A DNA stretch of 64,000 nucleotides from contig CAZCYZ010000001.1 in the NCBI GenBank assembly GCA_964503465.1, forward strand, positions 195,731 through 259,730, given 5' to 3'. The stretch comes from an uncultured Gammaproteobacteria bacterium. Its GTDB lineage: Bacteria > Patescibacteriota > Microgenomatia > UBA12405. Under the pieces are notes generated by a model. That model was not told the DNA's origin, ran no database searches, and saw only the letters and a program-made list of their open reading frames with translations. A program made the translations under genes and the position numbers. This document shows positions 6,336-55,973 of the stretch, piece after piece; the stretch's first letter is position 1; each line of letters opens with the position of its first letter.

Positions 6336-6840
6336 CATTTTTTCTCTTTTCTAGCCTCACGATCTCATCCATCGACATGGTCTTAAACTTTACATTAGCC
6401 CGGTCTGGGAAATATATAGCAACTTCTGGACCAATTTCTCTATCAATTCCGTTAATATTCCATTCTAAATCGGGATACCTACCAACAAAACTATGTAAAT
6501 CCATATTTATAACGAATTCAGCGTGTTCAAGTCCTTCGGAGAACTTGTCACCTTCAGCTGGGGCTAAAACTTCAAAGTACTTTATTTCACTACTCTGATA
6601 CTTTAATGGTCGATCCAGCAAATAAATATCCACCGGCCGGTTGCGGATGATATTGTGAGAAATCCGTTTACCATATCCACCCAAAAGCCTACTTATTGAG
6701 TCGTAAGATTTATTCGAGATCGCCCTATAAGCAATATGGTCAAACTTGCATCCTTTAATCTCAATTCCCACACTATCAATATTCTTAAAAACTCTGGCCA
6801 AAAAATTCGTATAATCACCAATTATTTCCTCAACCCTCAT
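6316..6840 (-). CDS. Hypothetical protein, possibly VOC/glyoxalase-like fold
   Basis: 174-aa ORF with FDHIAYR motif; no confident family assignment. Confidence 0.4.
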   Translation of the reverse strand: MRVEEIIGDYTNFLARVFKNIDSVGIEIKGCKFDHIAYRAISNKSYDSISRLLGGYGKRISHNIIRNRPVDIYLLDRPLKYQSSEIKYFEVLAPAEGDKFSEGLEHAEFVINMDLHSFVGRYPDLEWNINGIDREIGPEVAIYFPDRANVKFKTMSMDEIVRLEKRKNVNPTVF

Positions 6841-7969
6841 TGTTAATTATATCAGCCACTATCTCTCCCTCCCTAACCGCAAAGTTCATTCCTCTGTCCT
6901 CAGGATATATTCGAGCAAAGTTCACCTGATAAGTTTTTTTATTAAGCTTCATTTCTGGTACCTTATATCCAGTACTTACTACATGTTGGGCATACTTAAA
7001 GCTAAAAATGGACTTCTGTTCAACTTTCTCAATACCAAAACTTGGAAAAATCTTTTTAAGATAATCAAACCACTCCTTCTCGTCTACTTTTGTTTTTCCA
7101 TATGCCCCCAGATAATAAACATTGTCTCCGCCATAATTTTCCTTGTCTATAAAATTAGTGTGCTGAATAAAGGCCAAAAAAGGGGATTGGGTATCGTTTA
7201 TATTGTGCCAATAATACTTTGACAGGTTCTGTTTACTGGTAAAAACCAGACACACTGCTGGCAGGTAGTCTATTCTCTTAATTGGAGCGCTGGTTATTAT
7301 CTTGTCAAAGTTTTTTTCCTCTTTAAGCTCTGTCCCCAACTTTATTGCTCCACCGTTCGCTTTAATTCTTTTTGCCAGTTCATCGGTTACCTGTTGGAAT
7401 CCTCCCATTAAGTAACCCAAACCCCCGCTTCCTCTAGTATGAATCCTGGCCCACATCCAGGCCATAGAGACATCTCTGTATCTATCATTAAATTTGCCCC
7501 GTAACAGTGGTTCCCATACCACCTTGTAAGCTCTTCTCCCGCACCACTTTTCCATCCACTCTGCCGCTGTTACTTTTTCAAATTTCTTCCAATTGCGCTC
7601 TTTTTCCAGATAAATTTTTACTAGCCCTAACCTTAACTTGTCCATTAGCCCCAGTGGTTTAAATCGGAACAAGTCCACTGCCCCAGCAAACGGATAAACC
7701 TGACTATCATAATAAATTGCCGTCACATCTTTTCGCCAAACTAATTTGTCAATCAGCCCCAATTCTTTTACCAGAGCTATATAGTCTTTGTCTTTTCTAA
7801 AAATATGATGATATGTTTTTTCTAGATTTGTTCCATTTATTTCAAATCCTCCTGCCAGTCCCCCTAGTTCTTTTTCCTTTTCAAAAACCGTTATCTTGTG
7901 TCCCTCTTGGCTCAACCTATACCCAGCTACTAATCCCGTTAGCCCCCCTCCCACAATTGCTATTTTCAT
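6830..7969 (-). CDS. NAD(P)/FAD-dependent oxidoreductase (amine-oxidase / protoporphyrinogen-oxidase-like Rossmann N-terminus)
   Basis: MKIAIVGGGLTGLVAGYRL...VFEKEKELGG dinucleotide-binding motif; 379 aa. Confidence 0.65.
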   Translation of the reverse strand: MKIAIVGGGLTGLVAGYRLSQEGHKITVFEKEKELGGLAGGFEINGTNLEKTYHHIFRKDKDYIALVKELGLIDKLVWRKDVTAIYYDSQVYPFAGAVDLFRFKPLGLMDKLRLGLVKIYLEKERNWKKFEKVTAAEWMEKWCGRRAYKVVWEPLLRGKFNDRYRDVSMAWMWARIHTRGSGGLGYLMGGFQQVTDELAKRIKANGGAIKLGTELKEEKNFDKIITSAPIKRIDYLPAVCLVFTSKQNLSKYYWHNINDTQSPFLAFIQHTNFIDKENYGGDNVYYLGAYGKTKVDEKEWFDYLKKIFPSFGIEKVEQKSIFSFKYAQHVVSTGYKVPEMKLNKKTYQVNFARIYPEDRGMNFAVREGEIVADIINNEG

Positions 7970-33018: not shown

Positions 33019-33342
33019 ATGACAGTCCTTATTTGGCCAATTGTTAGCATTGTCATTAACGCCTTACTTTCACTGTATCGACACCGGGGCTTCCAAATTT
33101 TTCCAGTTTTTGCCACTTATGATTGTTTCTATTACGATGGGTTCATTCTTTGGTCACTTCGACTACTTCTCGTTTCATCAATTGTCTACCTATCATTTTG
33201 GGTTTTTCGGGAAAAGGTCAGACCCAAAATTATTCTTTATTTTTTAATTATTTTTTGTTTTATATTATTGGTATATTTATATTCCGTTCATATTGAACAA
33301 ACACCCGGTCCCAACGGATCATCCTGGTGTCAATATATATGA
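33019..33342 (+). CDS. Hypothetical small membrane protein (doubtful)
   Basis: Three hydrophobic segments; the 3' half is extremely AT-rich and may be promoter DNA rather than coding. Confidence 0.25.
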   Translation: MTVLIWPIVSIVINALLSLYRHRGFQIFPVFATYDCFYYDGFILWSLRLLLVSSIVYLSFWVFREKVRPKIILYFLIIFCFILLVYLYSVHIEQTPGPNGSSWCQYI

Positions 33343-34298
33343 TTCCGACTATTTCCGTTTCTCACCTCTCCAAATCTTTCAAGGTTTTTGACAAGCAACC
33401 CGGTTTGGTCTCTTCAATTAAATCCATTTTTTACCGTCCCCAACATCTTGTTGAAGCGGTAAAGGACATTAGTTTCACCATCAACGAAGGTGAACTAGTT
33501 GGTTTTATTGGTCCCAACGGCGCCGGCAAAACCACCACCCTCAAAATGCTCTCTGGTCTTCTTTATCCCACCTCGGGCCATATCAATGTCCTTGGATTTA
33601 CTCCTCAGGACAGAAATTATGATTTTTTAAAAAAAATCGGCTTTGTTTTGGGGCAAAAGAATCAACTTTGGTGGGATATTCCACCCCAGGAAAGCTTTCT
33701 TCTTATCAAAGCCATGTACGACATCACTGACCGTGATTATCGTCGTCGCTTGGATTTTTTTATTGAGTCTCTTGAAATTGGAGACATCATTCGAATTCAA
33801 ACCAAAAAACTCTCTCTTGGACAAAGAATGCGCTGTGAGTTTGCTGCCGCCCTTCTCCATTCCCCCAAAGTTATCTTTCTTGATGAACCCACTATCGGCC
33901 TTGATGTTGTTGCCAATCTTAAAATTCGTGATTTTATTCATCAATACAATCAGGAATATAAATCAACCATTATCCTTACTAGCCACAACATGGCTGATGT
34001 TTCCAAACTTTGCCGTCGGGTAATTATTATTGATCGCGGAGCTATTTACTACGATGGCTCTCTTGTCGATCTCACCTCCAAATATACCCAACTCAAACTC
34101 CTCAAATTTACCTTCGAACATCCGGTTACTGTCAAGGAACTCAAGCAATCCGGCCAAACTATCAGTCTGTCTCTCCCAAAACACGAAGCTCTTAAATTAG
34201 CCGCCAAGTTGATTTCCAAATATCCGGTAGTTGATCTTAATATCGAAGATCCCCCAATCGAAGACATTATTCGCCAAATTTTTGTTAATCATGCTTAA
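33327..34298 (+). CDS. ABC transporter ATP-binding protein (NBD plus about 90-aa C-terminal domain)
   Basis: Walker A GPNGAGKTTTLKML, signature LSLGQRMR, Walker B IFLDEPT, H-loop. Confidence 0.9.
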   Translation: MSIYMIPTISVSHLSKSFKVFDKQPGLVSSIKSIFYRPQHLVEAVKDISFTINEGELVGFIGPNGAGKTTTLKMLSGLLYPTSGHINVLGFTPQDRNYDFLKKIGFVLGQKNQLWWDIPPQESFLLIKAMYDITDRDYRRRLDFFIESLEIGDIIRIQTKKLSLGQRMRCEFAAALLHSPKVIFLDEPTIGLDVVANLKIRDFIHQYNQEYKSTIILTSHNMADVSKLCRRVIIIDRGAIYYDGSLVDLTSKYTQLKLLKFTFEHPVTVKELKQSGQTISLSLPKHEALKLAAKLISKYPVVDLNIEDPPIEDIIRQIFVNHA

Positions 34299-35085
34299 GT
34301 ACTACATCATCGCCAAAAACACTCTCCAGGTCTATTTTGCCTACCGGCTCAATTTTATCTTTTGGCGGCTTCAGGTAATCATTTCTTTCCTAATTTTTTA
34401 TTATCTTTGGTTTGCTGTTGCCCAAGGCAAACAAACAGTAGGGGATTATACTATTCCCCAAATTTATTCATATTTTGTTATTGGTTATATTATTCGAGCC
34501 TTAGTTTTTTCCACTCGGACCGGTGATATTGGTGGTGATATTCAGTCCGGTACCCTCTCGTCCCTGCTTCTCAGGCCTATAGGCATTATTAAGTTCTATT
34601 TTAGCCGTGACCTTATCGATAAGCTTTTTAATTTAGTTTTTATGACCATTGAGTTTGGACTTATTGTTCTTGTTCTTCGGCCCCAGTTAGTTATTCCCAG
34701 CCCCCTCGATCTCCTCTACTTCACCATTTCCCTTATTATCGCTATTGTCATTTTCTTTTTTTACAGTCTAATAATTTCTTTTCTAACTTTTTGGACCGAT
34801 CAGGCCTGGTCGTCTCGTTTTCTTTTTGGAGTTGTTTTTATTAACCTTTTTTCGGGTCAATATATTCCCCTCGATCTTCTTCCTCGACCTTTGTTCCAGA
34901 TTCTAAACTACACCCCATTTCCCTACCTTTATTATTATCCTGTTCGTTTTTGGTTGGGCAAAGACATTGGTCTAGAACCGCTTCTGACACTTTTTATATC
35001 CCTTCTTATCTTGGGACTATTTTACTTTTCTGCTAATCTCCTCTGGATTCGAGGAAAACTTCGCTATCAGGCTTATGGCAATTAA
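34291..35085 (+). CDS. ABC-2 family transporter permease (subunit 1)
   Basis: About 6 TM helices; start ATG overlaps the ATPase stop (ATGCTTAAG); ABC-2/COG4587-like. Confidence 0.7.
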   Translation: MLKYYIIAKNTLQVYFAYRLNFIFWRLQVIISFLIFYYLWFAVAQGKQTVGDYTIPQIYSYFVIGYIIRALVFSTRTGDIGGDIQSGTLSSLLLRPIGIIKFYFSRDLIDKLFNLVFMTIEFGLIVLVLRPQLVIPSPLDLLYFTISLIIAIVIFFFYSLIISFLTFWTDQAWSSRFLFGVVFINLFSGQYIPLDLLPRPLFQILNYTPFPYLYYYPVRFWLGKDIGLEPLLTLFISLLILGLFYFSANLLWIRGKLRYQAYGN

Positions 35086-35866
35086 AAACGTTTTTACCAC
35101 TTGGATTATTATCGCCAAGAATAATCTCCAAAACCAGCTTCTGACAGCCTCATCATCGTTTTTTTTTATTATTGGTAAAATTGTTACCTTTATCTTCACC
35201 CTACTTACCATCTTTGCCATTTTTAGTACCACCCAAACAATTGTTGGTTTTTCTCTCCATCAGGCTATTATTGTCACTGTTGTCTACAATCTCATCGACT
35301 CATTTACTCAATTTTTATTTCGTTCCATCTATTCTTTTCGTCCGGTATTACTCCGGGGGGAGTTTGACCTTGATTTACTCAAGCCATTACCTTCATTTTT
35401 TCGCCCACTACTCTCTGGCCCGGACTTCTTTGATCTCCCCTCCATCATTATTCAGGTGGTTAGTCTAATTTTTTTCCTTATTAAATTTAATATTAATCCA
35501 AGTCTTGTTGACATTGCCGCCTTTCTTTCTCTCTTTTTAATTAGTGTCATTGTTGCTTTTTCACTACACTTATTAATGGCCGCCTTTTCCATCCTCACCA
35601 CCGAAATTGACAATATTGCCTGGATATACCGTTCTTTTGTCAGGGCAGGAATTGTTCCCACTGATGTTTATACCGGTAGTTTTAGGTTAATTCTTGACTA
35701 CATTATCCCTGTCACCATTCTCGTGACTGTTCCCGCTAAGGCTATCCTTGGTCTTCTTGATTTCCACTTTATTACCTACGTCGTCATTTTTTCGGCAATT
35801 TTGCTTACCATCTCTCTTTGGTTCTGGCGCTTCACTCTTCGCCACTATACCAGTACTGGCAGCTAA
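35075..35866 (+). CDS. ABC-2 family transporter permease (subunit 2)
   Basis: Second, distinct 6-TM permease overlapping the previous gene by 11 nt. Confidence 0.7.
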   Translation: MAIKNVFTTWIIIAKNNLQNQLLTASSSFFFIIGKIVTFIFTLLTIFAIFSTTQTIVGFSLHQAIIVTVVYNLIDSFTQFLFRSIYSFRPVLLRGEFDLDLLKPLPSFFRPLLSGPDFFDLPSIIIQVVSLIFFLIKFNINPSLVDIAAFLSLFLISVIVAFSLHLLMAAFSILTTEIDNIAWIYRSFVRAGIVPTDVYTGSFRLILDYIIPVTILVTVPAKAILGLLDFHFITYVVIFSAILLTISLWFWRFTLRHYTSTGS

Positions 35867-35886: not shown

Positions 35887-37626
35887 ATGCAATCGGTAAA
35901 GGTTGTTCTAATCAACTTAACCAAGCCAAATACAGCCAAGGGTTCAGGCCTGGAAGCCTTAGGAATTGAAACTGTCGCAGGACACATTTTGGGGAAATTT
36001 GGCCCTATGATCAAGGTAAGACTGTTCGATGCCCAGCTTGATTCAATATCAAAAATAATATCTAAAGTACGCAATTTTAACCCGGATCTTGTGGGTATCT
36101 CGGTTAATATCGGAGCAATTTCTGCTGCCGGACTGATTACAAAAAAGTTAACTAAATATCAGAACCCAAAAATTGTTTTTGGGGCTCGGGGGGCTGAATT
36201 CTATCCAGATTATTTACCCTGCCCCATAAGAACAGAGTGTTTTATAGCTTCTGGGTGGGGGGAAATAGCTTTGGAAGATATCGTATCCTATATGATTGGG
36301 AAAAAAGACTTAAAGCAGATAAGAAACATCCTAAAATATAGCTCCCCAGATAGCAATCTCTGGCAATCTACACCATGGTCAAAACAAGCAATTTTAGATT
36401 TACGAAAATCATTTCCGCCCTATCGGGCCAACCTAGACAGATATCGAAAACATGAAATGGTGACCATGGAGACTCAAAGAGGTTGCCCATATGCAAAATG
36501 TTATTTTTGTCCTCGGCCACACTCCTTAAAAGAGATACATATTTTTCCGATTGAAAAGAAGTTGAGAGAGTTGGTGTATCTATCCAAAAAGAAAGTTCGA
36601 AGCATTCCCATCATAGACGAAGAGTTTTTTCTTGGAAAAAATGGAATTAGCAAAAAAATAAAGTTGATAGAAGGGATCATTAAATATAAAAACAGAGGAC
36701 AAATTCATCCAGACCTAAACTTTTGTGTTGACATGAGAGCTGATACTATCTGTACGGCTATTGATGAGTTTGGCGGACTTGGTAATTCTAGTAACCCTCT
36801 TAATTTACTCAAAAGTGCCGGGGTGAAATTTATCTTTGTTGGCATAGAGAGTCTTTCTCAAGGAATGCTTGATCATCTCAACAAGGGGACAACTGTTGAA
36901 CAGAATGTAAGAGCTGTAACAGCTTTAAGAGAAGTTGGAATAAAATTTCAAGCAGGTAGCCTCAGTCTGGCTCCATTGATGAGGTTTAATTGGCTCAAGG
37001 AATCAGTAATTAGAATCCGACAACAAAACTTAGCTGAGCTTGCCGATCCTTCCTTACCTTTGATTCTATTTTCCACCTCAGAATATTACAAAAGGTATTT
37101 CGTTGATCATAAAGACAATCAAGAACTTCTTGACCTAACAAATAAAAACTTACCTGCCCTCGACACCTTATCTGGAATTCCCTATAAATACAAAGATCCT
37201 AAAGTTCAGATTATTGCTGGGGTTCACGATTTCCATGAAAAAGAGATGTATTTGCTAATGAAGAAACTAAGAAGTATCAATGCAAAGTTAGTTTATGGTG
37301 GAGAGGAAAAATCCGATATATATATGGAAATTTGGAAGTGGTTGAGTTATGGGCGACTGGAAATTATTCTTTGGGGTATGGAGGAGTTATGTGGTGAGTT
37401 ATCTAAAACTGACTGGAGGAAAACTATCTCCATAAAGCATCGTCTGATTTTTAAAGAGATGCAAAGGAGAAAACAGTATATGGCAACATCGCTCTTGAGG
37501 TTTATTCTACGTTCAAAACAGTCACTAAATCATAATCAAAAAAGATTGGTTGAGGTAAGTGATCTACTTAAGATAACCAAGGAGGTAACCAGCTCTACCC
37601 AATCGGTATATCGATTCGAAAGTTAA
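35887..37626 (+). CDS. B12-binding-domain-containing radical SAM protein (class B-like), function unknown
   Basis: N-terminal cobalamin-binding-like domain (VVLINLTKPN...DLVGISV), Fe-S motif RGCPYAKCYFC (CX4CX2C), Elp3-like FIFVGIESLSQGMLDHLNKG motif, long C-terminal extension without SPASM cysteines; AGA/ATA-rich codon usage unlike neighbouring genes. Confidence 0.75.
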   Translation: MQSVKVVLINLTKPNTAKGSGLEALGIETVAGHILGKFGPMIKVRLFDAQLDSISKIISKVRNFNPDLVGISVNIGAISAAGLITKKLTKYQNPKIVFGARGAEFYPDYLPCPIRTECFIASGWGEIALEDIVSYMIGKKDLKQIRNILKYSSPDSNLWQSTPWSKQAILDLRKSFPPYRANLDRYRKHEMVTMETQRGCPYAKCYFCPRPHSLKEIHIFPIEKKLRELVYLSKKKVRSIPIIDEEFFLGKNGISKKIKLIEGIIKYKNRGQIHPDLNFCVDMRADTICTAIDEFGGLGNSSNPLNLLKSAGVKFIFVGIESLSQGMLDHLNKGTTVEQNVRAVTALREVGIKFQAGSLSLAPLMRFNWLKESVIRIRQQNLAELADPSLPLILFSTSEYYKRYFVDHKDNQELLDLTNKNLPALDTLSGIPYKYKDPKVQIIAGVHDFHEKEMYLLMKKLRSINAKLVYGGEEKSDIYMEIWKWLSYGRLEIILWGMEELCGELSKTDWRKTISIKHRLIFKEMQRRKQYMATSLLRFILRSKQSLNHNQKRLVEVSDLLKITKEVTSSTQSVYRFES

Positions 37627-37731
37627 AACAGAGGGACAATTCTCCTTCGACAATCATCAGAATAAAACTAGTGATGTTTTTCTACCACCTGCCTCTTTAC
37701 AGTCTACATAGTTAATATATACAATAATCCC

Positions 37732-37923
37732 ATGTCTAGTCCAGACCAAAAACCAACAACTCACGCATCATCACCTTCACATCCACAGCAAAGACTGATT
37801 GAGAGTCTTTTACACCCAGAATCTAGCTGCTACTTTCCGGCTCATCCACCATCGGATAGAACCAAACGTATTCTCGAGGACATGGAAAGGAGACTGAACA
37901 GTCAAAGTCAAATTAAACCGTAA
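37732..37923 (+). CDS. Small hypothetical protein (63 aa, Ser/Pro/His-rich), co-located with the rSAM gene
   Basis: Shares the rSAM gene's AGA/AGG codon bias; no SD sequence; no homology recognised. Confidence 0.3.
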   Translation: MSSPDQKPTTHASSPSHPQQRLIESLLHPESSCYFPAHPPSDRTKRILEDMERRLNSQSQIKP

Positions 37924-41123: not shown

Positions 41124-41395
41124 TTCAGAGAAGTCGATAAGCCGAATTCTGTTTTTGGGTCATCAATCTATTCTCCCCACCTGAAGCTCTCAAAGGCTAG
41201 ATTTTAACGCTTCAATTTGAGATTTCCACCAAGGGGTTGCTCGTTTCATCTCTCCCGACGTAACGTCGGGATACTCGTCTCTGTAGCAGAGCCCACAGGT
41301 CACCCCGTTTCCGCCGCGGCGGCCCTTGTGCCTTTAGTGGTTCGGACTTTCCTCCCGTCAACTGACGGGTCAACCCTTCCACTTCTCCGAAGTTA
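41124..41395 (-). ncRNA. rnpB: RNase P RNA (reduced bacterial form)
   Basis: Minus strand contains the P4 strands GGAAAGTCCGAAC (revcomp of 41340-41352) and ACAGAATTCGGCTTAT (revcomp of 41137-41152); GC-rich, structured; about 270 nt; boundaries approximate. Confidence 0.7.
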
Positions 41396-46389: not shown

Positions 46390-48128
46390 TGCGACCAATT
46401 CACTGGCTTTTTGTTTTTTTCATTTCTATTTTTTCGATTTTCATCCATTCTCGGCAAATTCTTGTCAACCCTCCATCCCTTTTTTCCGACGAGGTTGATG
46501 CCGGTTATCAAGCCTTTGTTTTCAATTCTTGCGGTAACGACTATTTTGGCAACAAATTCCCCACCCATTTTCAGTCATTTTCTGACTGGCGCACTCCTCT
46601 TTACATTTACAGCGTCTCTTTAGCCCAAAAACTCCTTGGTCCCACCGAAACTTCTGTTAGGCTTCCCAGCCTCATCTTCGGCCTCCTTAGTATTCTTGTT
46701 TTCTCACTTATTATTCACCATATTTTTCAAAGTCAGCTTGCTTTCATCATTTCGTTTGTTGTTCTCTCTCTCAATCCCTGGCTTTTTCACTACAGTCGTA
46801 CTGCTTTTGAAGCTACTGGTATGATTCTTTCCCTTTTGCTGGCGATCTACCTTTGGCTTCTCTACCTTCAAAAACATCAACTGTCTCGTCTTCTCTTGTC
46901 AGTTGTCTTTTTTGCCGCTTCTTTTTATTTTTACGCCACTGCCAAGCTGTTTGTTTTGACACTCGTCTTCCCTATTTTCCTTATCTGGCGATCAAACTTT
47001 CTAAAATTACCTCGCGTTCATCTTTTTGTTGCTGTTGTTATTGCCTCTGTTATTGCCACCCCTCTTGTCGTCGATACCATCAAAGGTAGGGCCGGTTTCC
47101 GTTTTTCTTACATTAGCATCTTTACCGAGCCAACTTTATCGACTTCAGTTGATTATGCCCGTTATCAGGATTTACCTGTCGGCAGTCTGGATCAGGTTGG
47201 TCTTAGTCCTAATTTAACCACCAAGTTTTTTCACAACAAAATTAGCCACACCTTTACTACTTTCATTCGTAACTACATTTCTGCTTTTTCTACTGACTTT
47301 CTTGTTCTTCGAGGGGATAGTAATCTTCGTCAGGGTTTTGGGGAAAAAGGTAACTTTTACTATCTTGACCTAGTATTTTGTCTTGTTGGTCTTGTTTTTG
47401 CTTTTAGTCAACCTAACTTATCAAAATACCTTTATTTCTTTCTCTCTTTTCTTTTGTTAGCTCCAGTTCCTTTCGCTCTAACTCGTGATGTCACCTCCCC
47501 TCAAAGTACCCGGTTAATCTTAATGCTTATCCCTTTAATGTTTTTTATTGTTCTTGGAATTATGGCTATTATCAAACTTGTTCGCAGTCGTTTTATTTGG
47601 GGTCTGTTGGGGATATTATATCTTTTAGAATTTTCTAGTTTTATCCATTATTACAATCACCACTATCCTTTACTTTCAGCTCGGTCCTGGCATTATGGCA
47701 TGAAGACTGCTGTCCTTGATACCACCCCTCTTTCGGGTCAATTTGGCAAGATTTTTTATGGCAGCGGCAACGAACCGTTTTTACCTTTCTTCTACTTTTA
47801 CACTCATTATCTTCCTAGCAGTGCCAGTTGTAATCCGGTTCTCGATACCAAGAACTATTCTGATTCATATTTTTCAGGGAAAGTCGTCGAAAACAAATTC
47901 TTTTTTGGTCCACTTGAATGGAGTAACTTGGTTGCCAATGAACCAATTCTTGACCAGTATCTCTTTGTCATCTCAAGTCTTGAGTTATCACGTCTCAATG
48001 ATTTTCTTAATCATTCCAGCACTCATCGTGGTTACAAAATTAGTTATCAGCTTTTAAAACAACCCCTCAAGATTTATCCCGACCAGGAAGTTTATTACTA
48101 TCTTCAGTTCCAAAAGAAGCCAGTTTAG
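46389..48128 (+). CDS. GT-C fold glycosyltransferase (ArnT/PMT, family 39-like)
   Basis: Polytopic membrane protein with an N-terminal-loop DE motif (SDEVDAGYQAF); start at the ATG at 46389 (TAATG overlap with secF). Confidence 0.65.
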   Translation: MRPIHWLFVFFISIFSIFIHSRQILVNPPSLFSDEVDAGYQAFVFNSCGNDYFGNKFPTHFQSFSDWRTPLYIYSVSLAQKLLGPTETSVRLPSLIFGLLSILVFSLIIHHIFQSQLAFIISFVVLSLNPWLFHYSRTAFEATGMILSLLLAIYLWLLYLQKHQLSRLLLSVVFFAASFYFYATAKLFVLTLVFPIFLIWRSNFLKLPRVHLFVAVVIASVIATPLVVDTIKGRAGFRFSYISIFTEPTLSTSVDYARYQDLPVGSLDQVGLSPNLTTKFFHNKISHTFTTFIRNYISAFSTDFLVLRGDSNLRQGFGEKGNFYYLDLVFCLVGLVFAFSQPNLSKYLYFFLSFLLLAPVPFALTRDVTSPQSTRLILMLIPLMFFIVLGIMAIIKLVRSRFIWGLLGILYLLEFSSFIHYYNHHYPLLSARSWHYGMKTAVLDTTPLSGQFGKIFYGSGNEPFLPFFYFYTHYLPSSASCNPVLDTKNYSDSYFSGKVVENKFFFGPLEWSNLVANEPILDQYLFVISSLELSRLNDFLNHSSTHRGYKISYQLLKQPLKIYPDQEVYYYLQFQKKPV

Positions 48129-49434
48129 TCAGCAGTACCTCCCGTTCATTTAACTTTGGATCTTTCTCTACTTCGGCAAAAATATTATCAAGAATTTCAC
48201 CAATTTTTCGCCCTGGTCCAATCTCTAGCGCCTTCATCACATCATGGCCATCGATTTTAAGATCTTTGACTGAAAATGGTTGTTTCTGAACTTCAACCAA
48301 TCTTTTTTTAAACAATTCCCAACGCCAACTAGTTTCACTGGCGCCACTCCCCACCCTGTCTGCCCTTCTTAGGGCAATCATCTCTTCGAGGTACTCCGGT
48401 GTAACATTGCGGATAAATCGTCTGACAGCACTATCTGTTTGCATCTCGCTGGCCGTAAACATGTGCCACCTTACCAGCCTAAACAATTGATCTAATTCTT
48501 TGTTTGATAATCGCAATCTTTTTCCTATCGCCATTGCCACTCTTGATCCTATTACTTCGTGATTATGAAAGGTTCTTGCCTCACCCTCACCTTGCATCAC
48601 ACTTGGCTTAGCCACATCGTGAAGCAGTGCTGCTAACCTAGTTACCGGATTGTTACTTTGACAATTATTAAGGGATTCTATTAAATGTTCCCACACATTA
48701 AACACATGATGTCCTTTTTGCGCCACCCCCACCCCTGTCAGTACTTCTGGTAATATTTCTGTCAACAAGCCACTGTTTTTCAATAGCTTCATCCCATCCC
48801 CGGGTGTTGGTGATAGTAGAATCTTAAATAACTCATCTCGGATTCGTTCTCCAGCAATTTCTTTGATCAATTTGGTATTGTTGGTTATCGACACAAAGGT
48901 CGCTTCTTCTATCGTAAATCCAATTTGTGACGCGATCCTGATTGCTCTTATCATTCGTAAGGCATCCTCTCCAAATCTTTCGTCTGGATTACCCACTGCT
49001 TTTATTAGTCTCTTTTTTAAATCACTTTCCCCGCCGTACAAATCAACAATTTCACCGTTTAACCCCATTGCCAGGGCATTAATTGTAAAATCCCTTCTCT
49101 GTAAGTCTTCCTCCAAACTCTCCCCCCAATGGATATTGTCCGGGTGTCTTCTGTCCGAATAACCCTGTTCAGTTCTAAAAGTTGTTACCTCAAATACTTC
49201 CTTATCCTCCATTACTATTCCCACTGTCCCAAATTTATTGTCATAAAAACTATTTTTAGGAAACAGTTTTTGAATTTCTTCTGGTTTTAAGTTTGTCGTA
49301 AAGTCCCAGTCTTTAACCTCTCTGTCCATCAGTAAATCTCTTACTGCTCCTCCCACCACATAAATCTCCGCCCCCGCGGCCTCAAATTTGTCTATCAGTT
49401 TTCTTACCTTCTCTGGTAGGACAATCTTTCCCAT
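48067..49434 (-). CDS. cca: CCA-adding enzyme / poly(A) polymerase family nucleotidyltransferase with HD domain
   Basis: GGAVRDLLMDREVKDWDF head domain; RRDFTINALA; C-terminal HD (HDVAK). Confidence 0.85.
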   Translation of the reverse strand: MGKIVLPEKVRKLIDKFEAAGAEIYVVGGAVRDLLMDREVKDWDFTTNLKPEEIQKLFPKNSFYDNKFGTVGIVMEDKEVFEVTTFRTEQGYSDRRHPDNIHWGESLEEDLQRRDFTINALAMGLNGEIVDLYGGESDLKKRLIKAVGNPDERFGEDALRMIRAIRIASQIGFTIEEATFVSITNNTKLIKEIAGERIRDELFKILLSPTPGDGMKLLKNSGLLTEILPEVLTGVGVAQKGHHVFNVWEHLIESLNNCQSNNPVTRLAALLHDVAKPSVMQGEGEARTFHNHEVIGSRVAMAIGKRLRLSNKELDQLFRLVRWHMFTASEMQTDSAVRRFIRNVTPEYLEEMIALRRADRVGSGASETSWRWELFKKRLVEVQKQPFSVKDLKIDGHDVMKALEIGPGRKIGEILDNIFAEVEKDPKLNEREVLLTKLASFGTEDSNKLPGRDKS

Positions 49435-52113: not shown

Positions 52114-53934
52114 ATGGAAAGGACAGTAATTTCTGACACTATTTCTGGGATTGGTCAGGAAGTTCGGATCAAAGGTTGGGTGGTTTCAGTTCGAAGTCAC
52201 GGTCAAATAGTCTTTGCCGACATTCGTGATCGTAGTGGTCTTCTTCAAATTGTTGGCGACAAATCATTAAACGAACTTCGTCAAGAATATGCTGTCGAGA
52301 TTGTCGGTCTGGTTCGTCCTCGTGATCCCAAATATTTCAACCCCAAACTTGTTACTGGTCAAATTGAGCTTGAAGTCAAAAGTCTGACGGTTCTGGCCAA
52401 ATCACGCGATCTCCCTTTTGATATTCACCAACCAGACCTCAATGTTTCTCTCCCCACTCTTCTTGATCATCGTTCGGCTTCCCTTCGTAATCTTAAAATC
52501 CAGGATGTATTTACTGTCCAATCAACCATTGTTAATGCCTTCAGAAATTTTTTACAAAGCCAAAACTTCAAGGAAATTTTTGTCCCTACCATTGTTGCTG
52601 GCTCTACTGAGGGAGGATCAGAAGTTTTTCCCGTCGATTATTTTGGCTACCAGGCTTTTTTGGCTCAAAGTCCTCAACTCTACAAACAAGTTCTTACTTC
52701 AGTCTTCGAAAGAGTGTTTACTATCGCTCACGCCTATCGGGCCGAACCTAGCGTCACCACTCGTCATTTGACCGAATACGTTGGGCTCGACGTTGAAATG
52801 GGATTTATTGATAGTTGGCTTGATGTCCTTGGGGTTGCCGATGCCACTGTCAAAGCCATTTTTGAATTGGTTGGTCAACTCCATCAGGACATTCTTGACA
52901 AGTATCAAGCCACTCTCCCCAAAACTATTGCCAACACCCCCCGAATCAAACTAAAAGATGCCCTGGAGTTAATTTACAAACGCACTGGCCGTGACGTTCG
53001 TCAGGAATTAGACATGGACCCAGAAGGTGAACGGGAGATTTGCCGCTGGTCCTTGGAGGAATTTGGTAGTGATCTTGTTTTCATTACCCATTTTTACACC
53101 AAAAAACGTGCCTGGTATTCATTCGCTGATCCCGAAAACCCCAACGAAACCCTTACTTTCGATCTCATTGGTCGAGGAGTCGAGTGGATCAGTGGTGGCC
53201 AACGGATTCATGACTATGACGAATTTAGACAAAAACTAATTTCTCGTGATCAGAATCCTGATGATTTTGAATCACCTTATGGCCAAACCTTTAAATACGG
53301 TATGCCGCCTGAAGGTGGTTTCTGCATTGGTTTGGAGCGAGTCACTCAAAATATTCTTGGCTTAGAAAATATTCGCCAAGCTTCATTGTTCCCCCGCGAC
53401 ATGGAACGTGTCGATGGTCGTTTATCGGTTATTGGTAAAAGAAAAACTCTTACTACCAAAACCGATCTTCACCAAAAACTGTTAAGTTTCCTCAACGAAA
53501 AATTAATAAAATACCAACACTTGGAGCATGAGGAAGTCAAAACATCAGAGGCGGCCGCTGCTGCCCGTGGTACCAGGCTCGAACAGGGAGCCAAGGCATT
53601 GATTATGTACGCCGACAGCCAACCAATATTGGTTGTTCTTTCGGCCGCTAGTAAGCTCGATAGTGATGAGTTCAAAAAACAATTTGGTGTCAAAGATCTT
53701 CGTATGGCTACCCCCGATGAAGTCGAGACGGTCTCCACTGTTCCCATCGGCGCTGTCCCTCCTTTTGGTAACCTCATTAACTTGGTTACTTACGTTGACG
53801 AGGGTTTGTTGGTCAACAAAGAAATCGCTTTCAATGCTGGTTCACGTCGGCATTCAGTTATAATCAAATCTAGTGATTTCGTCAATGCCGTCCGTCCGAA
53901 AAAAGGCCGCTTCTGTCAAGCCACCAAAGACTAA
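52114..53934 (+). CDS. aspS: Class IIb aspartyl/asparaginyl-tRNA synthetase (archaeal-type core) fused to a C-terminal YbaK/ProX-like aminoacyl-tRNA deacylase domain
   Basis: OB-fold anticodon-binding N-terminus; LAQSPQLYKQ and motif-2 YRAEPS...; the C-terminal roughly 170 aa align to YbaK (KALIMY/LAVAV, GAVPPFG ~ GGISPLG, IAFNAGSRRHSVII ~ IYVSGGKRGLDIEL). Confidence 0.75.
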   Translation: MERTVISDTISGIGQEVRIKGWVVSVRSHGQIVFADIRDRSGLLQIVGDKSLNELRQEYAVEIVGLVRPRDPKYFNPKLVTGQIELEVKSLTVLAKSRDLPFDIHQPDLNVSLPTLLDHRSASLRNLKIQDVFTVQSTIVNAFRNFLQSQNFKEIFVPTIVAGSTEGGSEVFPVDYFGYQAFLAQSPQLYKQVLTSVFERVFTIAHAYRAEPSVTTRHLTEYVGLDVEMGFIDSWLDVLGVADATVKAIFELVGQLHQDILDKYQATLPKTIANTPRIKLKDALELIYKRTGRDVRQELDMDPEGEREICRWSLEEFGSDLVFITHFYTKKRAWYSFADPENPNETLTFDLIGRGVEWISGGQRIHDYDEFRQKLISRDQNPDDFESPYGQTFKYGMPPEGGFCIGLERVTQNILGLENIRQASLFPRDMERVDGRLSVIGKRKTLTTKTDLHQKLLSFLNEKLIKYQHLEHEEVKTSEAAAAARGTRLEQGAKALIMYADSQPILVVLSAASKLDSDEFKKQFGVKDLRMATPDEVETVSTVPIGAVPPFGNLINLVTYVDEGLLVNKEIAFNAGSRRHSVIIKSSDFVNAVRPKKGRFCQATKD

Positions 53935-54929: not shown

Positions 54930-55973
54930 TTACTTCACCCACTTATCTACCACTGCTGGTATATAAGCCACAAAGTTATTGTCACCCTCAAACACAAAAA
55001 TCGGTTGCATGTAATTTGTCAGTGTCACTGGTTCAAAATAAGCCAGATACATTTTTCTGATGGCTACCTTAGCTGACTTATTATCCACTGCTGGCCAATA
55101 ATTGCCCAATTTCAAATCATTCCACGCCTCTTCAGCTGTTTTAATCGGATACGTTTCATACGATTCCCGATCAATGTTGGTGTGTTTATAACTCACTTCC
55201 ACCACCTTTTTTCCTACTACCGTTGATCCGGTTAACAACAATGACACCGAAGCTCTTCCATACTCTGATGATAAAATCTTTGTCTCTTTTTCCAGCGCCT
55301 TCCTAAAAAAATCAACCCTAACAATATTGGCTTCAGCTTGGGAATTTACTGGTACCAAGCCACTATCTTCAATTTTCCAAAAACTAACCTTTTTCTCCCC
55401 TCCCGCCAGATCATCCGACAGTTTTCCTCCCTGGTCAAGGTAAAGTTTGGCTTGCTCAATGGCCTTGTCTTTGGTCGGTACCATCCCACTACTGGATAAT
55501 GTCTGATCAGTTAAGTATGGATAACTAATTTTAAAACTACCATCCAAAACATTAATCACCAAACTTTGATTTAACTGATCATTCCTAAATTCATAAATAC
55601 CATTATTTTGATCTTTCTCTATTGGTTTGGTTATAAATTGAAAGTTTTGAGCTGTCTTTGTTTCTTCCTCCAGGGCCAAAAAAGTGTTTAGTGGTCTATA
55701 AACAACATATACTTTCGCTTGATCCGCAAACTTGGGTAAACTATCGTTAGGAAGTTCCAACACAAACTCTTTCTTCTCTGCCTTTTTTTCTGGAAATACA
55801 ATTTTTGGCAACACTCCATAACGGGTTGTTGGTGGTGTATATGGTGGGTGGGCTGCTCGGTAGGCTTTCACTCCCGCCACCAAACCTGTCCACAGTATTA
55901 CAAAAATCACCAAACCACTGCCGCCGTACTTAATTAAATTCCTCGATAAATAAGCTGTCTGCGTCAGCGACAT
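54930..55973 (-). CDS. Hypothetical secreted/membrane-anchored protein (347 aa)
   Basis: N-terminal TM anchor (LVIFVILWTGLVAG), large extracytoplasmic domain; no confident family. Confidence 0.45.
   Translation of the reverse strand: MSLTQTAYLSRNLIKYGGSGLVIFVILWTGLVAGVKAYRAAHPPYTPPTTRYGVLPKIVFPEKKAEKKEFVLELPNDSLPKFADQAKVYVVYRPLNTFLALEEETKTAQNFQFITKPIEKDQNNGIYEFRNDQLNQSLVINVLDGSFKISYPYLTDQTLSSSGMVPTKDKAIEQAKLYLDQGGKLSDDLAGGEKKVSFWKIEDSGLVPVNSQAEANIVRVDFFRKALEKETKILSSEYGRASVSLLLTGSTVVGKKVVEVSYKHTNIDRESYETYPIKTAEEAWNDLKLGNYWPAVDNKSAKVAIRKMYLAYFEPVTLTNYMQPIFVFEGDNNFVAYIPAVVDKWVK

Follow-up and report, generated by a model that had tools for sequence, protein, structure and literature searches.

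Class B radical SAM enzymes carry a cobalamin domain. OxsB, from oxetanocin-A biosynthesis in Bacillus megaterium, was the first cobalamin-dependent radical SAM enzyme to be crystallized (2017 structures; PDB 5UL2, 5UL3 and 5UL4), and it has a homologue, AlsB, in albucidin biosynthesis. The substrates of OxsB and AlsB are dAMP/dATP (PMC13331322). The cluster-binding motif of OxsB is CX4CX2C (RGCDYSRCTFCPR), and the water at the lower axial position of its cobalamin is anchored by Asn186 (PMC9204698; PMC13331322). R323 is salt-bridged to E363 in the GGE motif, H325 touches the cobalamin, and a GE motif sets the position of the cobalamin with respect to the cluster (PMC9204698).

The window, as we call the whole 64,000-nucleotide stretch of DNA that was analyzed, encodes a 579-residue OxsB-like cobalamin-domain radical SAM protein, P0001, in an intact ORF with an ATG start (35887-37626; plus strand, as are all domains, motifs and transporter genes given below). 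The preliminary description of the gene had reported a frame intact for 579 codons and the motif C-PYAK-C-YF-C at 36484-36510. Both were confirmed by the sequence and its ORF: tgc cca tat gca aaa tgt tat ttt tgt is in frame and encodes C200-P-Y-A-K-C205-Y-F-C208. The first spacer is, as had been stated, one residue longer than in the superfamily consensus CX3CX2C, giving CX4CX2C. This is also the only cysteine cluster, again as described; the remaining five of the eight cysteines (residues 112, 118, 280, 289 and 502) are unclustered. Among ORFs of at least 80 amino acids in the six frames of the window, the P0001 motif is the sole CX4CX2C, while CX3CX2C is absent from all long ORFs and the window holds no second radical SAM motif. 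The motif stands at the start of a match to Pfam Radical_SAM (PF04055; residues 194-353, 36466-36945), which delimits the radical SAM core and scores 39.9 bits against a cut-off of 29.5 (E = 6e-10). The motif is no chance match.

In an alignment of 105 sequences, the three cysteine columns are invariant. The preliminary description was right that the aromatic residue before the third cysteine is conserved (F in 88 sequences, Y in 9, I in 8). So is the flanking GIES motif that it had pointed out (G319-I-E321-S322, 36841-36852; GVES in OxsB), with G in 105, E in 104 and S in 99 of the 105 sequences.

P0001 resembles OxsB in its radical SAM core and C-terminal helical domain, and probably also in its Rossmann domain. 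The putative N-terminal, cobalamin-binding-like Rossmann domain covers residues 1-136 (35887-36294), and the all-helical C-terminal domain covers residues ~438-579 (37198-37623). [quoted passage not shown] Helix 5 of the Rossmann domain bears the GE motif, G123-W-G125-E126 (36253-36264), where G125 is invariant, as is G99, and where G123 and E126 are conserved in at least 90%. G70-I-S72-V-N74 and G125-E126 correspond to the class B motifs G-x-S-x-X and GE as defined in PMC9204698. The earlier assignment to class B, the B12-domain radical SAM proteins, is supported. Its Pfam B12-binding score (24.3 bits) lies below the threshold of 32.1, so the prediction that it binds cobalamin draws on motif conservation and fold. 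An AlphaFold model built on the 105 sequences (pLDDT 92.7, pTM 0.92) has the class B radical SAM fold, including the partial TIM barrel and the GGE-type SAM-binding strand; it superseded an earlier run on six family sequences only (pLDDT 67, cluster loop below 50). In a Foldseek search of solved structures, the top match was OxsB (5ul3; E = 1.4e-27, TM 0.74).

OxsB was likewise the top sequence match among solved structures (E = 1.2e-20), with RGCDYSRCTFCPR aligned gap-free to RGCPYAKCYFCPR. The alignment reproduced the OxsB numbering (C313/C318/C321, R323, N186 and A361-D362-E363), in agreement with both reviews, and it placed Cys200, Cys205 and Cys208, which are predicted to ligate the SAM-binding [4Fe-4S] cluster, on Cys313, Cys318 and Cys321. 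The two proteins share the cluster context RGC-X4-C-x-F-C-P-R, the Asn of G-x-S-x-N under the corrin, the GE motif, the x-D-E form of the GGE motif and the Arg-Glu pair (R210/E245). In the tail of the Cys loop, P209-R210-P211-H212 (36511-36522), R210 is the equivalent of OxsB R323 and H212 of H325; the GGE SAM-binding motif of P0001 is I243-D244-E245 (36613-36621), corresponding to OxsB A361-D362-E363, and D244 is kept in 103 and E245 in 86 of the 105 sequences. Among 106 sequences, only the family of P0001 and OxsB combine G-x-S-x-N with C-X4-C-X2-C-P-R.

P0001 nevertheless differs from OxsB in several respects. It is 23.8% identical to OxsB, whereas members of the OxsB subfamily are 36-55% identical to it. 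It lacks the four-domain architecture, starting at the Rossmann domain without domain I, and has Ser in place of OxsB K326. Unlike OxsB and AlsB, it has no recognizable biosynthetic cluster around its gene. A partner gene, for the HD phosphohydrolase OxsA or the radical SAM protein AlsA, was looked for near the P0001 gene and none was found; the only HD domains nearby are in RNase Y and the CCA-adding enzyme. P0001 was not among the 25 best BLAST subjects of OxsB within the sequence set, and in a neighbor-joining tree, which did not resolve its sister group, it sits on a long separate branch. Given 24% identity, the missing N-terminal domain and the lack of an OxsA or AlsA neighbor, we rejected P0001 as an orthologue of OxsB or AlsB.

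How unusual is the spacing? A profile search of 1.84 billion 50%-identity cluster representatives gave 6729 matches, and in the best 150 of these the first spacer was CX4 in 120, CX3 in 25, CX8 in 4 and CX5 in 1. Hence the preliminary view that such non-canonical spacing is rare did not hold here: judged from these sequences, CX4CX2C is the normal, inherited state of the OxsB-like clade and not a local oddity. HmdB, which had been offered as an example of CX4CX2C, was wrongly chosen and we rejected it as a precedent, since the HmdB/HcgA motif is CX5CX2C (PMC4389238, PMC3087415). The relevant precedent, OxsB (PDB 5UL2-4), had been overlooked. Other lengthened first spacers occur in QueE (CX14CX2C) and in RadicalSAM.org megaclusters (CX4 to CX11); these groups and HmdB/HcgA belong to subfamilies that are unrelated and, unlike P0001, have no B12 domain. 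From them it can be seen that a Cys loop lengthened in its first spacer still binds the cluster.

We conclude that the motif is very probably a genuine [4Fe-4S] site of the class B, OxsB-like clade, in which CX4CX2C is normal, in a protein that is not itself an OxsB or AlsB orthologue. P0001 is an uncharacterized member of a known branch; because its motif is normal for that branch, it does not represent a new kind of active site. The motif itself is of little weight, since the 2017 structures of OxsB already gave it a structural explanation. As CX4CX2C is the majority form in a large B12-domain radical SAM clade, annotators should not take it for an error or for the mark of an inactive enzyme.

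The OxsB structures suggest by homology how P0001 might work. The reduced cluster would bind SAM through its fourth iron and cleave it, and the resulting 5'-deoxyadenosyl radical would remove a hydrogen atom from the substrate. The N-terminal Rossmann domain would carry the cobalamin in its base-off form, within a few angstroms of the cluster, with Asn74 of G-x-S-x-N organizing the lower-axial water. Through the Arg210-Glu245 pair, the corrin would be linked both to the Cys loop and to the SAM-binding GGE strand.

Might P0001 instead be a conventional cobalamin-dependent methyltransferase, with CX4 irrelevant to its chemistry? TsrM, TokK, CysS and MgmA are class B methyltransferases of known structure and have the canonical CX3CX2C. 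Under the corrin lies Arg69 in TsrM and Trp76 in TokK, and the residue after the Cys motif is Glu in TsrM and Trp in TokK (PMC9204698). P0001, by contrast, has Asn74 under the corrin, as in OxsB, and not a bulky Arg or Trp; two positions after the motif it has Arg210, again as in OxsB. Its top match in both sequence and Foldseek searches is moreover OxsB, which is not a methylase. None of these points proves the chemistry, and we hold methyltransferase activity to be possible, if on balance doubtful. It is improbable that the Rossmann domain is vestigial, as in AprD4, and that the radical SAM core acts alone with no use of cobalamin: conservation extends to G-x-S-x-N, to E126 and to G99 and G125, both invariant, and the Arg210-Glu245 pair, which bridges SAM and corrin in OxsB, is kept.

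Our best guess at the substrate of P0001, a low-confidence one, is a nucleotide or nucleoside. One hint is that OxsB and AlsB have dAMP/dATP as substrates. Another comes from fusion proteins among relatives, in which the partner is cytidylate kinase (3), UDPGP (3) and, in one case each, guanylate kinase, dNMP kinase, a nucleoside phosphorylase-superfamily domain, HD and PfkB. These fusions point weakly to nucleotides, since the fused relatives belong to subfamilies other than that of P0001 and methyltransferase fusions occur there too. It is a long shot that the subfamily, probably a horizontally mobile one, rearranges nucleosides or nucleotides by a new OxsB-type radical reaction assisted by cobalamin, and that neighboring ABC systems move the substrate or product; such a rearrangement could, for example, make or detoxify a nucleoside antimetabolite. 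This tiny subfamily keeps the OxsB-specific residues that couple the cofactors (the Asn beneath the corrin, the bridging Arg-Glu pair), which have so far been tied only to non-methylating, nucleotide-rearranging chemistry. One characterized member could lengthen the very short list of non-methylase class B reactions.

The P0001 subfamily is very rare and deep-branching. It makes up three 50%-identity clusters among the 1.84 billion representatives, and a protein search of 5.8e9 sequences found few family members, most of them on contigs of 1.5-9 kb. The close homologues are 52-57% identical to P0001 and come from Anaerolineae MAGs and JGI/ENA metagenomes; three of them (P0002, P0003 and P0004) have an extra N-terminal region of ~135-160 amino acids that is absent from P0001. 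Members of the subfamily are found in Anaerolineae, in a bacterium with a small genome and as transposase-flanked copies.

Against the background of its genome, the P0001 gene has a foreign codon composition (z ~8), and it was probably acquired by horizontal transfer. A search for direct or inverted repeats bounding this foreign-composition gene gave short, chance-level matches only. One could argue from the foreign composition that such a transfer left the gene as a passenger that is decaying or has no function, the more so as the ~150-residue N-terminal domain of its homologues is missing and a related copy, with transposases on its flanks, is broken into two ORFs. However, the ORF is intact over its 579 codons and every cofactor motif is retained; the 52-57% identity is to relatives from another phylum, and within the C-terminal two-thirds 150 alignment columns are invariant. 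TokK and TsrM likewise lack an N-terminal domain (PMC13331322). We consider a decaying passenger very unlikely.

Upstream of the P0001 gene, and given as context only, lie genes for a DrrA-like ABC ATPase (33327-34298) and two ABC2_membrane_6 permeases (34231-35085 and 35075-35866), which end 20 bp before its ATG. Their codon composition is native and that of the radical SAM gene is foreign, so a functional link is doubtful and the transporter says little about function. The other neighbors are YchF, MiaA and an AI-2E transporter. Across the family loci, the neighborhoods contain an ABC-2 transporter (L001), a Bmp ABC importer (L002 and L004), transposases (L003 and L006) or gamma-glutamyl transpeptidase (L005). 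The Bmp-family ABC importer next to the P0002 gene, whose final permease gene and the P0002 gene overlap, is a further hint of a nucleotide-type substrate. A scan of genome contigs added one locus only, in an Anaerolineae MAG, with the gene order of L002. A comparison of five loci showed no conserved neighborhood and, since neighborhoods differ among family members, we rejected operon-based prediction of function.

In a scan for promoters and terminators, sites were no more numerous than in shuffled sequence. The 310-bp gap downstream of the P0001 gene contains a 63-amino-acid ORF (37732-37923) with a promoter-like site, and P0001 has a weak NCBIfam match to a RiPP C-methyltransferase family; together these could be read as a RiPP maturase acting on the product of that ORF. 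Yet the small ORF has no homologue among 5.8e9 proteins and no counterpart beside any family member, and we saw neither a protease nor a transporter nor a leader-recognition domain, which makes a maturase role highly improbable.

There is next to no chance that a 3-nt insertion by sequencing or assembly error has altered a true CX3CX2C, because, as the preliminary description had maintained in holding that the spacing was no sequence error, the X4 spacer is real: over 5490 bp, whole gene included, the window does not differ at all from the independent Logan assembly made from run SRR8925802, and the same spacing is found in every close homologue, in homologues from at least four other sources, in OxsB and in 120 of the 150 nearest representatives (the best 150 of 6729). 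The preliminary description had named CX3CX2C in all close homologues as a finding that would refute it; that refutation failed, as P0002, P0003 and P0004 all read RGC-X4-C-X2-CPRP.

A preliminary description of the window read a CX4CX2C radical-SAM cysteine motif at 36484-36510 on the forward strand and took the spacing to be rare and no sequence error. Re-deriving sequence and frame confirmed the reading: tgc cca tat gca aaa tgt tat ttt tgt lies in frame within an ORF of 579 codons with an ATG start (35887..37626, +) and encodes Cys200-Pro-Tyr-Ala-Lys-Cys205-Tyr-Phe-Cys208, the sole cluster among the eight cysteines of the protein. When all window ORFs of at least 80 aa were scanned in six frames, CX4CX2C was unique to the radical-SAM ORF, and CX3CX2C was absent from every long ORF. 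Perhaps the extra codon arose as an assembly or sequencing artefact? This is excluded by two observations: a Logan contig from run SRR8925802, an independent assembly, is identical to the window DNA over 5490 bp that include the whole gene, and every close homologue found in a search of 5.8 billion proteins has the same spacing, so that none carries CX3CX2C. The Cys loop reads RGCPHAACWFCPRP in P0002, a homologue from an Anaerolineae MAG with 57% identity to the window protein, and RGCSYSACLFCPRP in P0003, P0004 and their cluster members from JGI, ENA and Logan metagenomes (52% identity).

The spacing is also common among more distant relatives. A profile built from the six family sequences was run on 1.84 billion representatives clustered at 50% identity. 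It matched 6729 proteins with E <= 1e-3, of which 61 reached E <= 1e-30; the close family comprised only three of the representatives (P0003, the window protein P0001 and P0023). Among the best 150 of the 6729 matches, with the Cys motif taken within the matched domain, 120 representatives have CX4CX2C, which can hardly be called rare, 25 have CX3CX2C, 4 have CX8CX2C and 1 has CX5CX2C. The CX8 group includes P0023, the nearest outgroup of the window family (RGCPHVVKKGGCLFCPHP; L005 1334-3031, Logan SRR24270827; 40% identity), in which the Rossmann/B12 domain is wholly absent and the family N-terminal region is joined straight to the radical-SAM core. In an alignment of 105 single-domain members, all three motif cysteines are invariant, R-G precedes the first in 102 of the 105, and the residue ahead of the third is F in 88, Y in 9 and I in 8. 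Judged from these sequences, a four-residue first spacer is the rule inside the clade and loop length is plastic, and the window motif is non-canonical only relative to the superfamily consensus. Clusters at RadicalSAM.org have first spacers from CX4 to CX11 (PMC9477430).

HmdB, which had been offered as an example of CX4CX2C, is a mistaken precedent: the HmdB/HcgA motif is CX5CX2C (PMC4389238; PMC3087415). It should be replaced by OxsB, which has the spacing of the window protein in the same sequence context. OxsB (5UL2/3/4) was the top match among all PDB sequences (E 1.2e-20; query 40-433 against OxsB 151-552), and window RGCPYAKCYFCPRPH aligns gap-free onto OxsB RGCDYSRCTFCPRDH. The cluster binding of this spacing and context is already visible in the OxsB crystal structure. 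We rebuilt OxsB 151-552 from the PDB alignment and reproduced the published numbering (Asn186, Cys313, Cys318, Cys321, Arg323, Ala361-Asp362-Glu363). Nearly all of the OxsB features that place cobalamin beside the cluster (defined in PMC9204698 and PMC13331322) are kept in the window protein. G182-x-S184-x-N186, whose Asn186 holds the lower-axial water, corresponds to G70-I-S72-V-N74, and the cobalamin-positioning GE motif of helix 5 to G125-E126. The Cys loop C-X4-C-X2-C-P-R323-x-H325-K326, which binds the cluster and contacts cobalamin, corresponds to C200-X4-C205-X2-C208-P209-R210-P-H212-S213; the GGE strand A361-D362-E363, whose E363 forms a salt bridge to R323 and a hydrogen bond to the corrin, corresponds to I243-D244-E245. 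The sole difference among these features is Ser in place of OxsB Lys326. Across 106 sequences, G-x-S-x-N and C-X4-C-X2-C-P-R occur together only in the window family and in OxsB itself, while other OxsB-subfamily representatives keep C-P-R with Ser or Arg in place of Asn.

In Pfam, residues 194-353 match Radical_SAM with 39.9 bits, which exceeds the threshold, and residues 42-132 match the B12-binding domain with 24.3 bits, short of the threshold of 32.1. The NCBIfam matches, all far below threshold, are exclusively B12-domain radical-SAM families, among them BchE, PhpK, MCR glutamine methylase and HpnR. AlphaFold gave a poor model with six sequences (pLDDT 67) and a confident one with the 105-sequence alignment (pLDDT 92.7, pTM 0.92), with a Rossmann domain (about residues 1-136), the radical-SAM core and, at the C-terminus, long helices that form a bundle. 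A Foldseek search of the PDB placed OxsB first (5ul3, E 1.4e-27, TM 0.74), followed by CysS, TsrM, MgmA, AprD4 and TokK. The predicted fold puts the window protein firmly among B12-domain radical-SAM enzymes; the modelled fold alone is without power to single out OxsB.

Orthology to OxsB or its relative AlsB is ruled out by identity, tree, domain content and neighbours. Identity to OxsB is 23.8% for the window protein, whereas the OxsB subfamily (P0074, P0137, P0153, P0150, P0160, P0125 and P0158) reaches 36-55%. In an NJ tree the window family sits on a long branch whose distance to all the rest is much the same (0.77-0.80). The window protein is without the N-terminal domain, where its homologues have 135-160 additional residues, and the upstream gene stops 20 bp short of the start codon. 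Neither an OxsA-like HD phosphohydrolase nor a second radical-SAM gene adjoins the gene; its neighbours include RecA, RNase Y, a DrrA-like ABC ATPase, two ABC2_membrane_6 permeases, YchF, MiaA, an AI-2E transporter and SecDF. We conclude that the window protein is a new, uncharacterised representative of an enzyme type already known, that it belongs to a rare subfamily, and that its motif already has a structural explanation.

Beyond the sequence, motif conservation, fold and clade membership established here, homology to the OxsB structures suggests a mechanism. In a [4Fe-4S] cluster, three of the irons would be bound by Cys200, Cys205 and Cys208. SAM, chelating the fourth iron, would be cleaved reductively to a 5'-deoxyadenosyl radical that abstracts hydrogen from the substrate. 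Base-off cobalamin would sit on the Rossmann domain beside the cluster, its lower face organised by Asn74, and Arg210-Glu245 would link Cys loop, SAM site and corrin. The chemistry may be an OxsB-like rearrangement or a methylation; the signature of Asn and Arg inclines towards rearrangement.

Gene neighbourhoods differ between family members and are not conserved. At two Anaerolineae MAG loci (L002 2103-12184 and L004), the gene for the 727-aa P0002-type homologue begins inside the final permease gene of an ABC importer of the Bmp family, the two sharing 14 nt. The importer comprises a double-Bmp binding protein, an ATPase that is fused, and two permeases of the BPD_transp_2 type; its gene cluster is interrupted by genes for a HEPN protein and for an unknown protein of 208 aa. 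The P0023 gene adjoins a gamma-glutamyl transpeptidase gene. P0003-type copies adjoin Y1 and DDE transposases. At L006 10001-12107 (ENA contig_94014) the gene is broken into two ORFs of 400 and 317 aa that overlap and are flanked by Y1_Tnp and DDE_Tnp_1 genes, and at L003 5663-8938 a second copy lies beside a Y1 transposase; these copies point to a mobile context and possible decay.

Among the nearest relatives, 36 representatives are multidomain, and in these Pfam finds fusions to cytidylate kinase (3), UDPGP nucleotidyltransferase (3), one each to guanylate kinase, dNMP kinase, PNP_UDP_1, HD and PfkB, several phosphatase families, and SAM-methyltransferase and other domains. OxsB and AlsB, the only characterised members, act on dATP and dAMP (PMC13331322). 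Together these give a weak hint, at the level of the clade, of a nucleoside or nucleotide substrate; for the window protein such a substrate would be a guess. Many nearest relatives are OxsB-like CX4CX2C modules inside giant proteins, some also with several CX3CX2C motifs: P0024, P0026, P0029, P0030 (three Radical_SAM stretches by Pfam), P0037, P0120 and others are representatives of 4600-6400 aa. Glucan synthase is a further fusion partner among the multidomain relatives, and this fusion hints at a eukaryotic origin for some.

At third positions that are four-fold degenerate, we compared the radical-SAM gene with a sample of 25 other + strand genes from 1750-63886. In the sample, GC skew runs from -0.52 to -0.74 (mean -0.66; sd 0.063), while AT skew runs from -0.44 to -0.71 (mean -0.58; sd 0.072); the + strand is C/T-rich at these sites in every + strand gene, with the radical-SAM gene as an outlier (GC skew -0.12, z = +8.5; AT skew +0.01, z = +8.2). 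Its GC content is also the lowest (0.378; mean 0.419). The pattern is mirrored in - strand genes (6830-7969, 48067-49434, 54930-55973), whose GC3 skew, read in the coding sense, lies between +0.37 and +0.47; the asymmetry is therefore one of the DNA strands. It is very strong at synonymous sites and unusually large for replication or transcription skew. Composition appears native in the flanking ABC genes and in ychF; the radical-SAM gene was therefore probably acquired recently by horizontal transfer. No repeats bounding the gene as insertion marks were found. Recent acquisition is in keeping with the patchy distribution and with the copies flanked by transposases; it also weakens any functional link to the adjoining ABC-2 transporter.

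The 310 bp that separate the radical-SAM gene from ychF contain a 63-aa ORF (37732-37923, +) with a promoter-like site ahead of it (37696-37725, 10/12 matches); it has no homologue among 5.8e9 proteins and no counterpart near radical-SAM relatives. The top Rfam match of a 264-nt RNase P RNA at 41126-41389 (-) is the archaeal model RF00373 (121.5 bits, full length). Gene content of the window is bacterial (RecA, RNase Y, MiaA, YchF, SecDF), and the RNA may be a bacterial form that is reduced or atypical. Finally, a class II aspartyl/asparaginyl/lysyl-type tRNA synthetase at 52114-53934 (+) carries a C-terminal tRNA_edit (YbaK-like) editing domain, an uncommon fusion.
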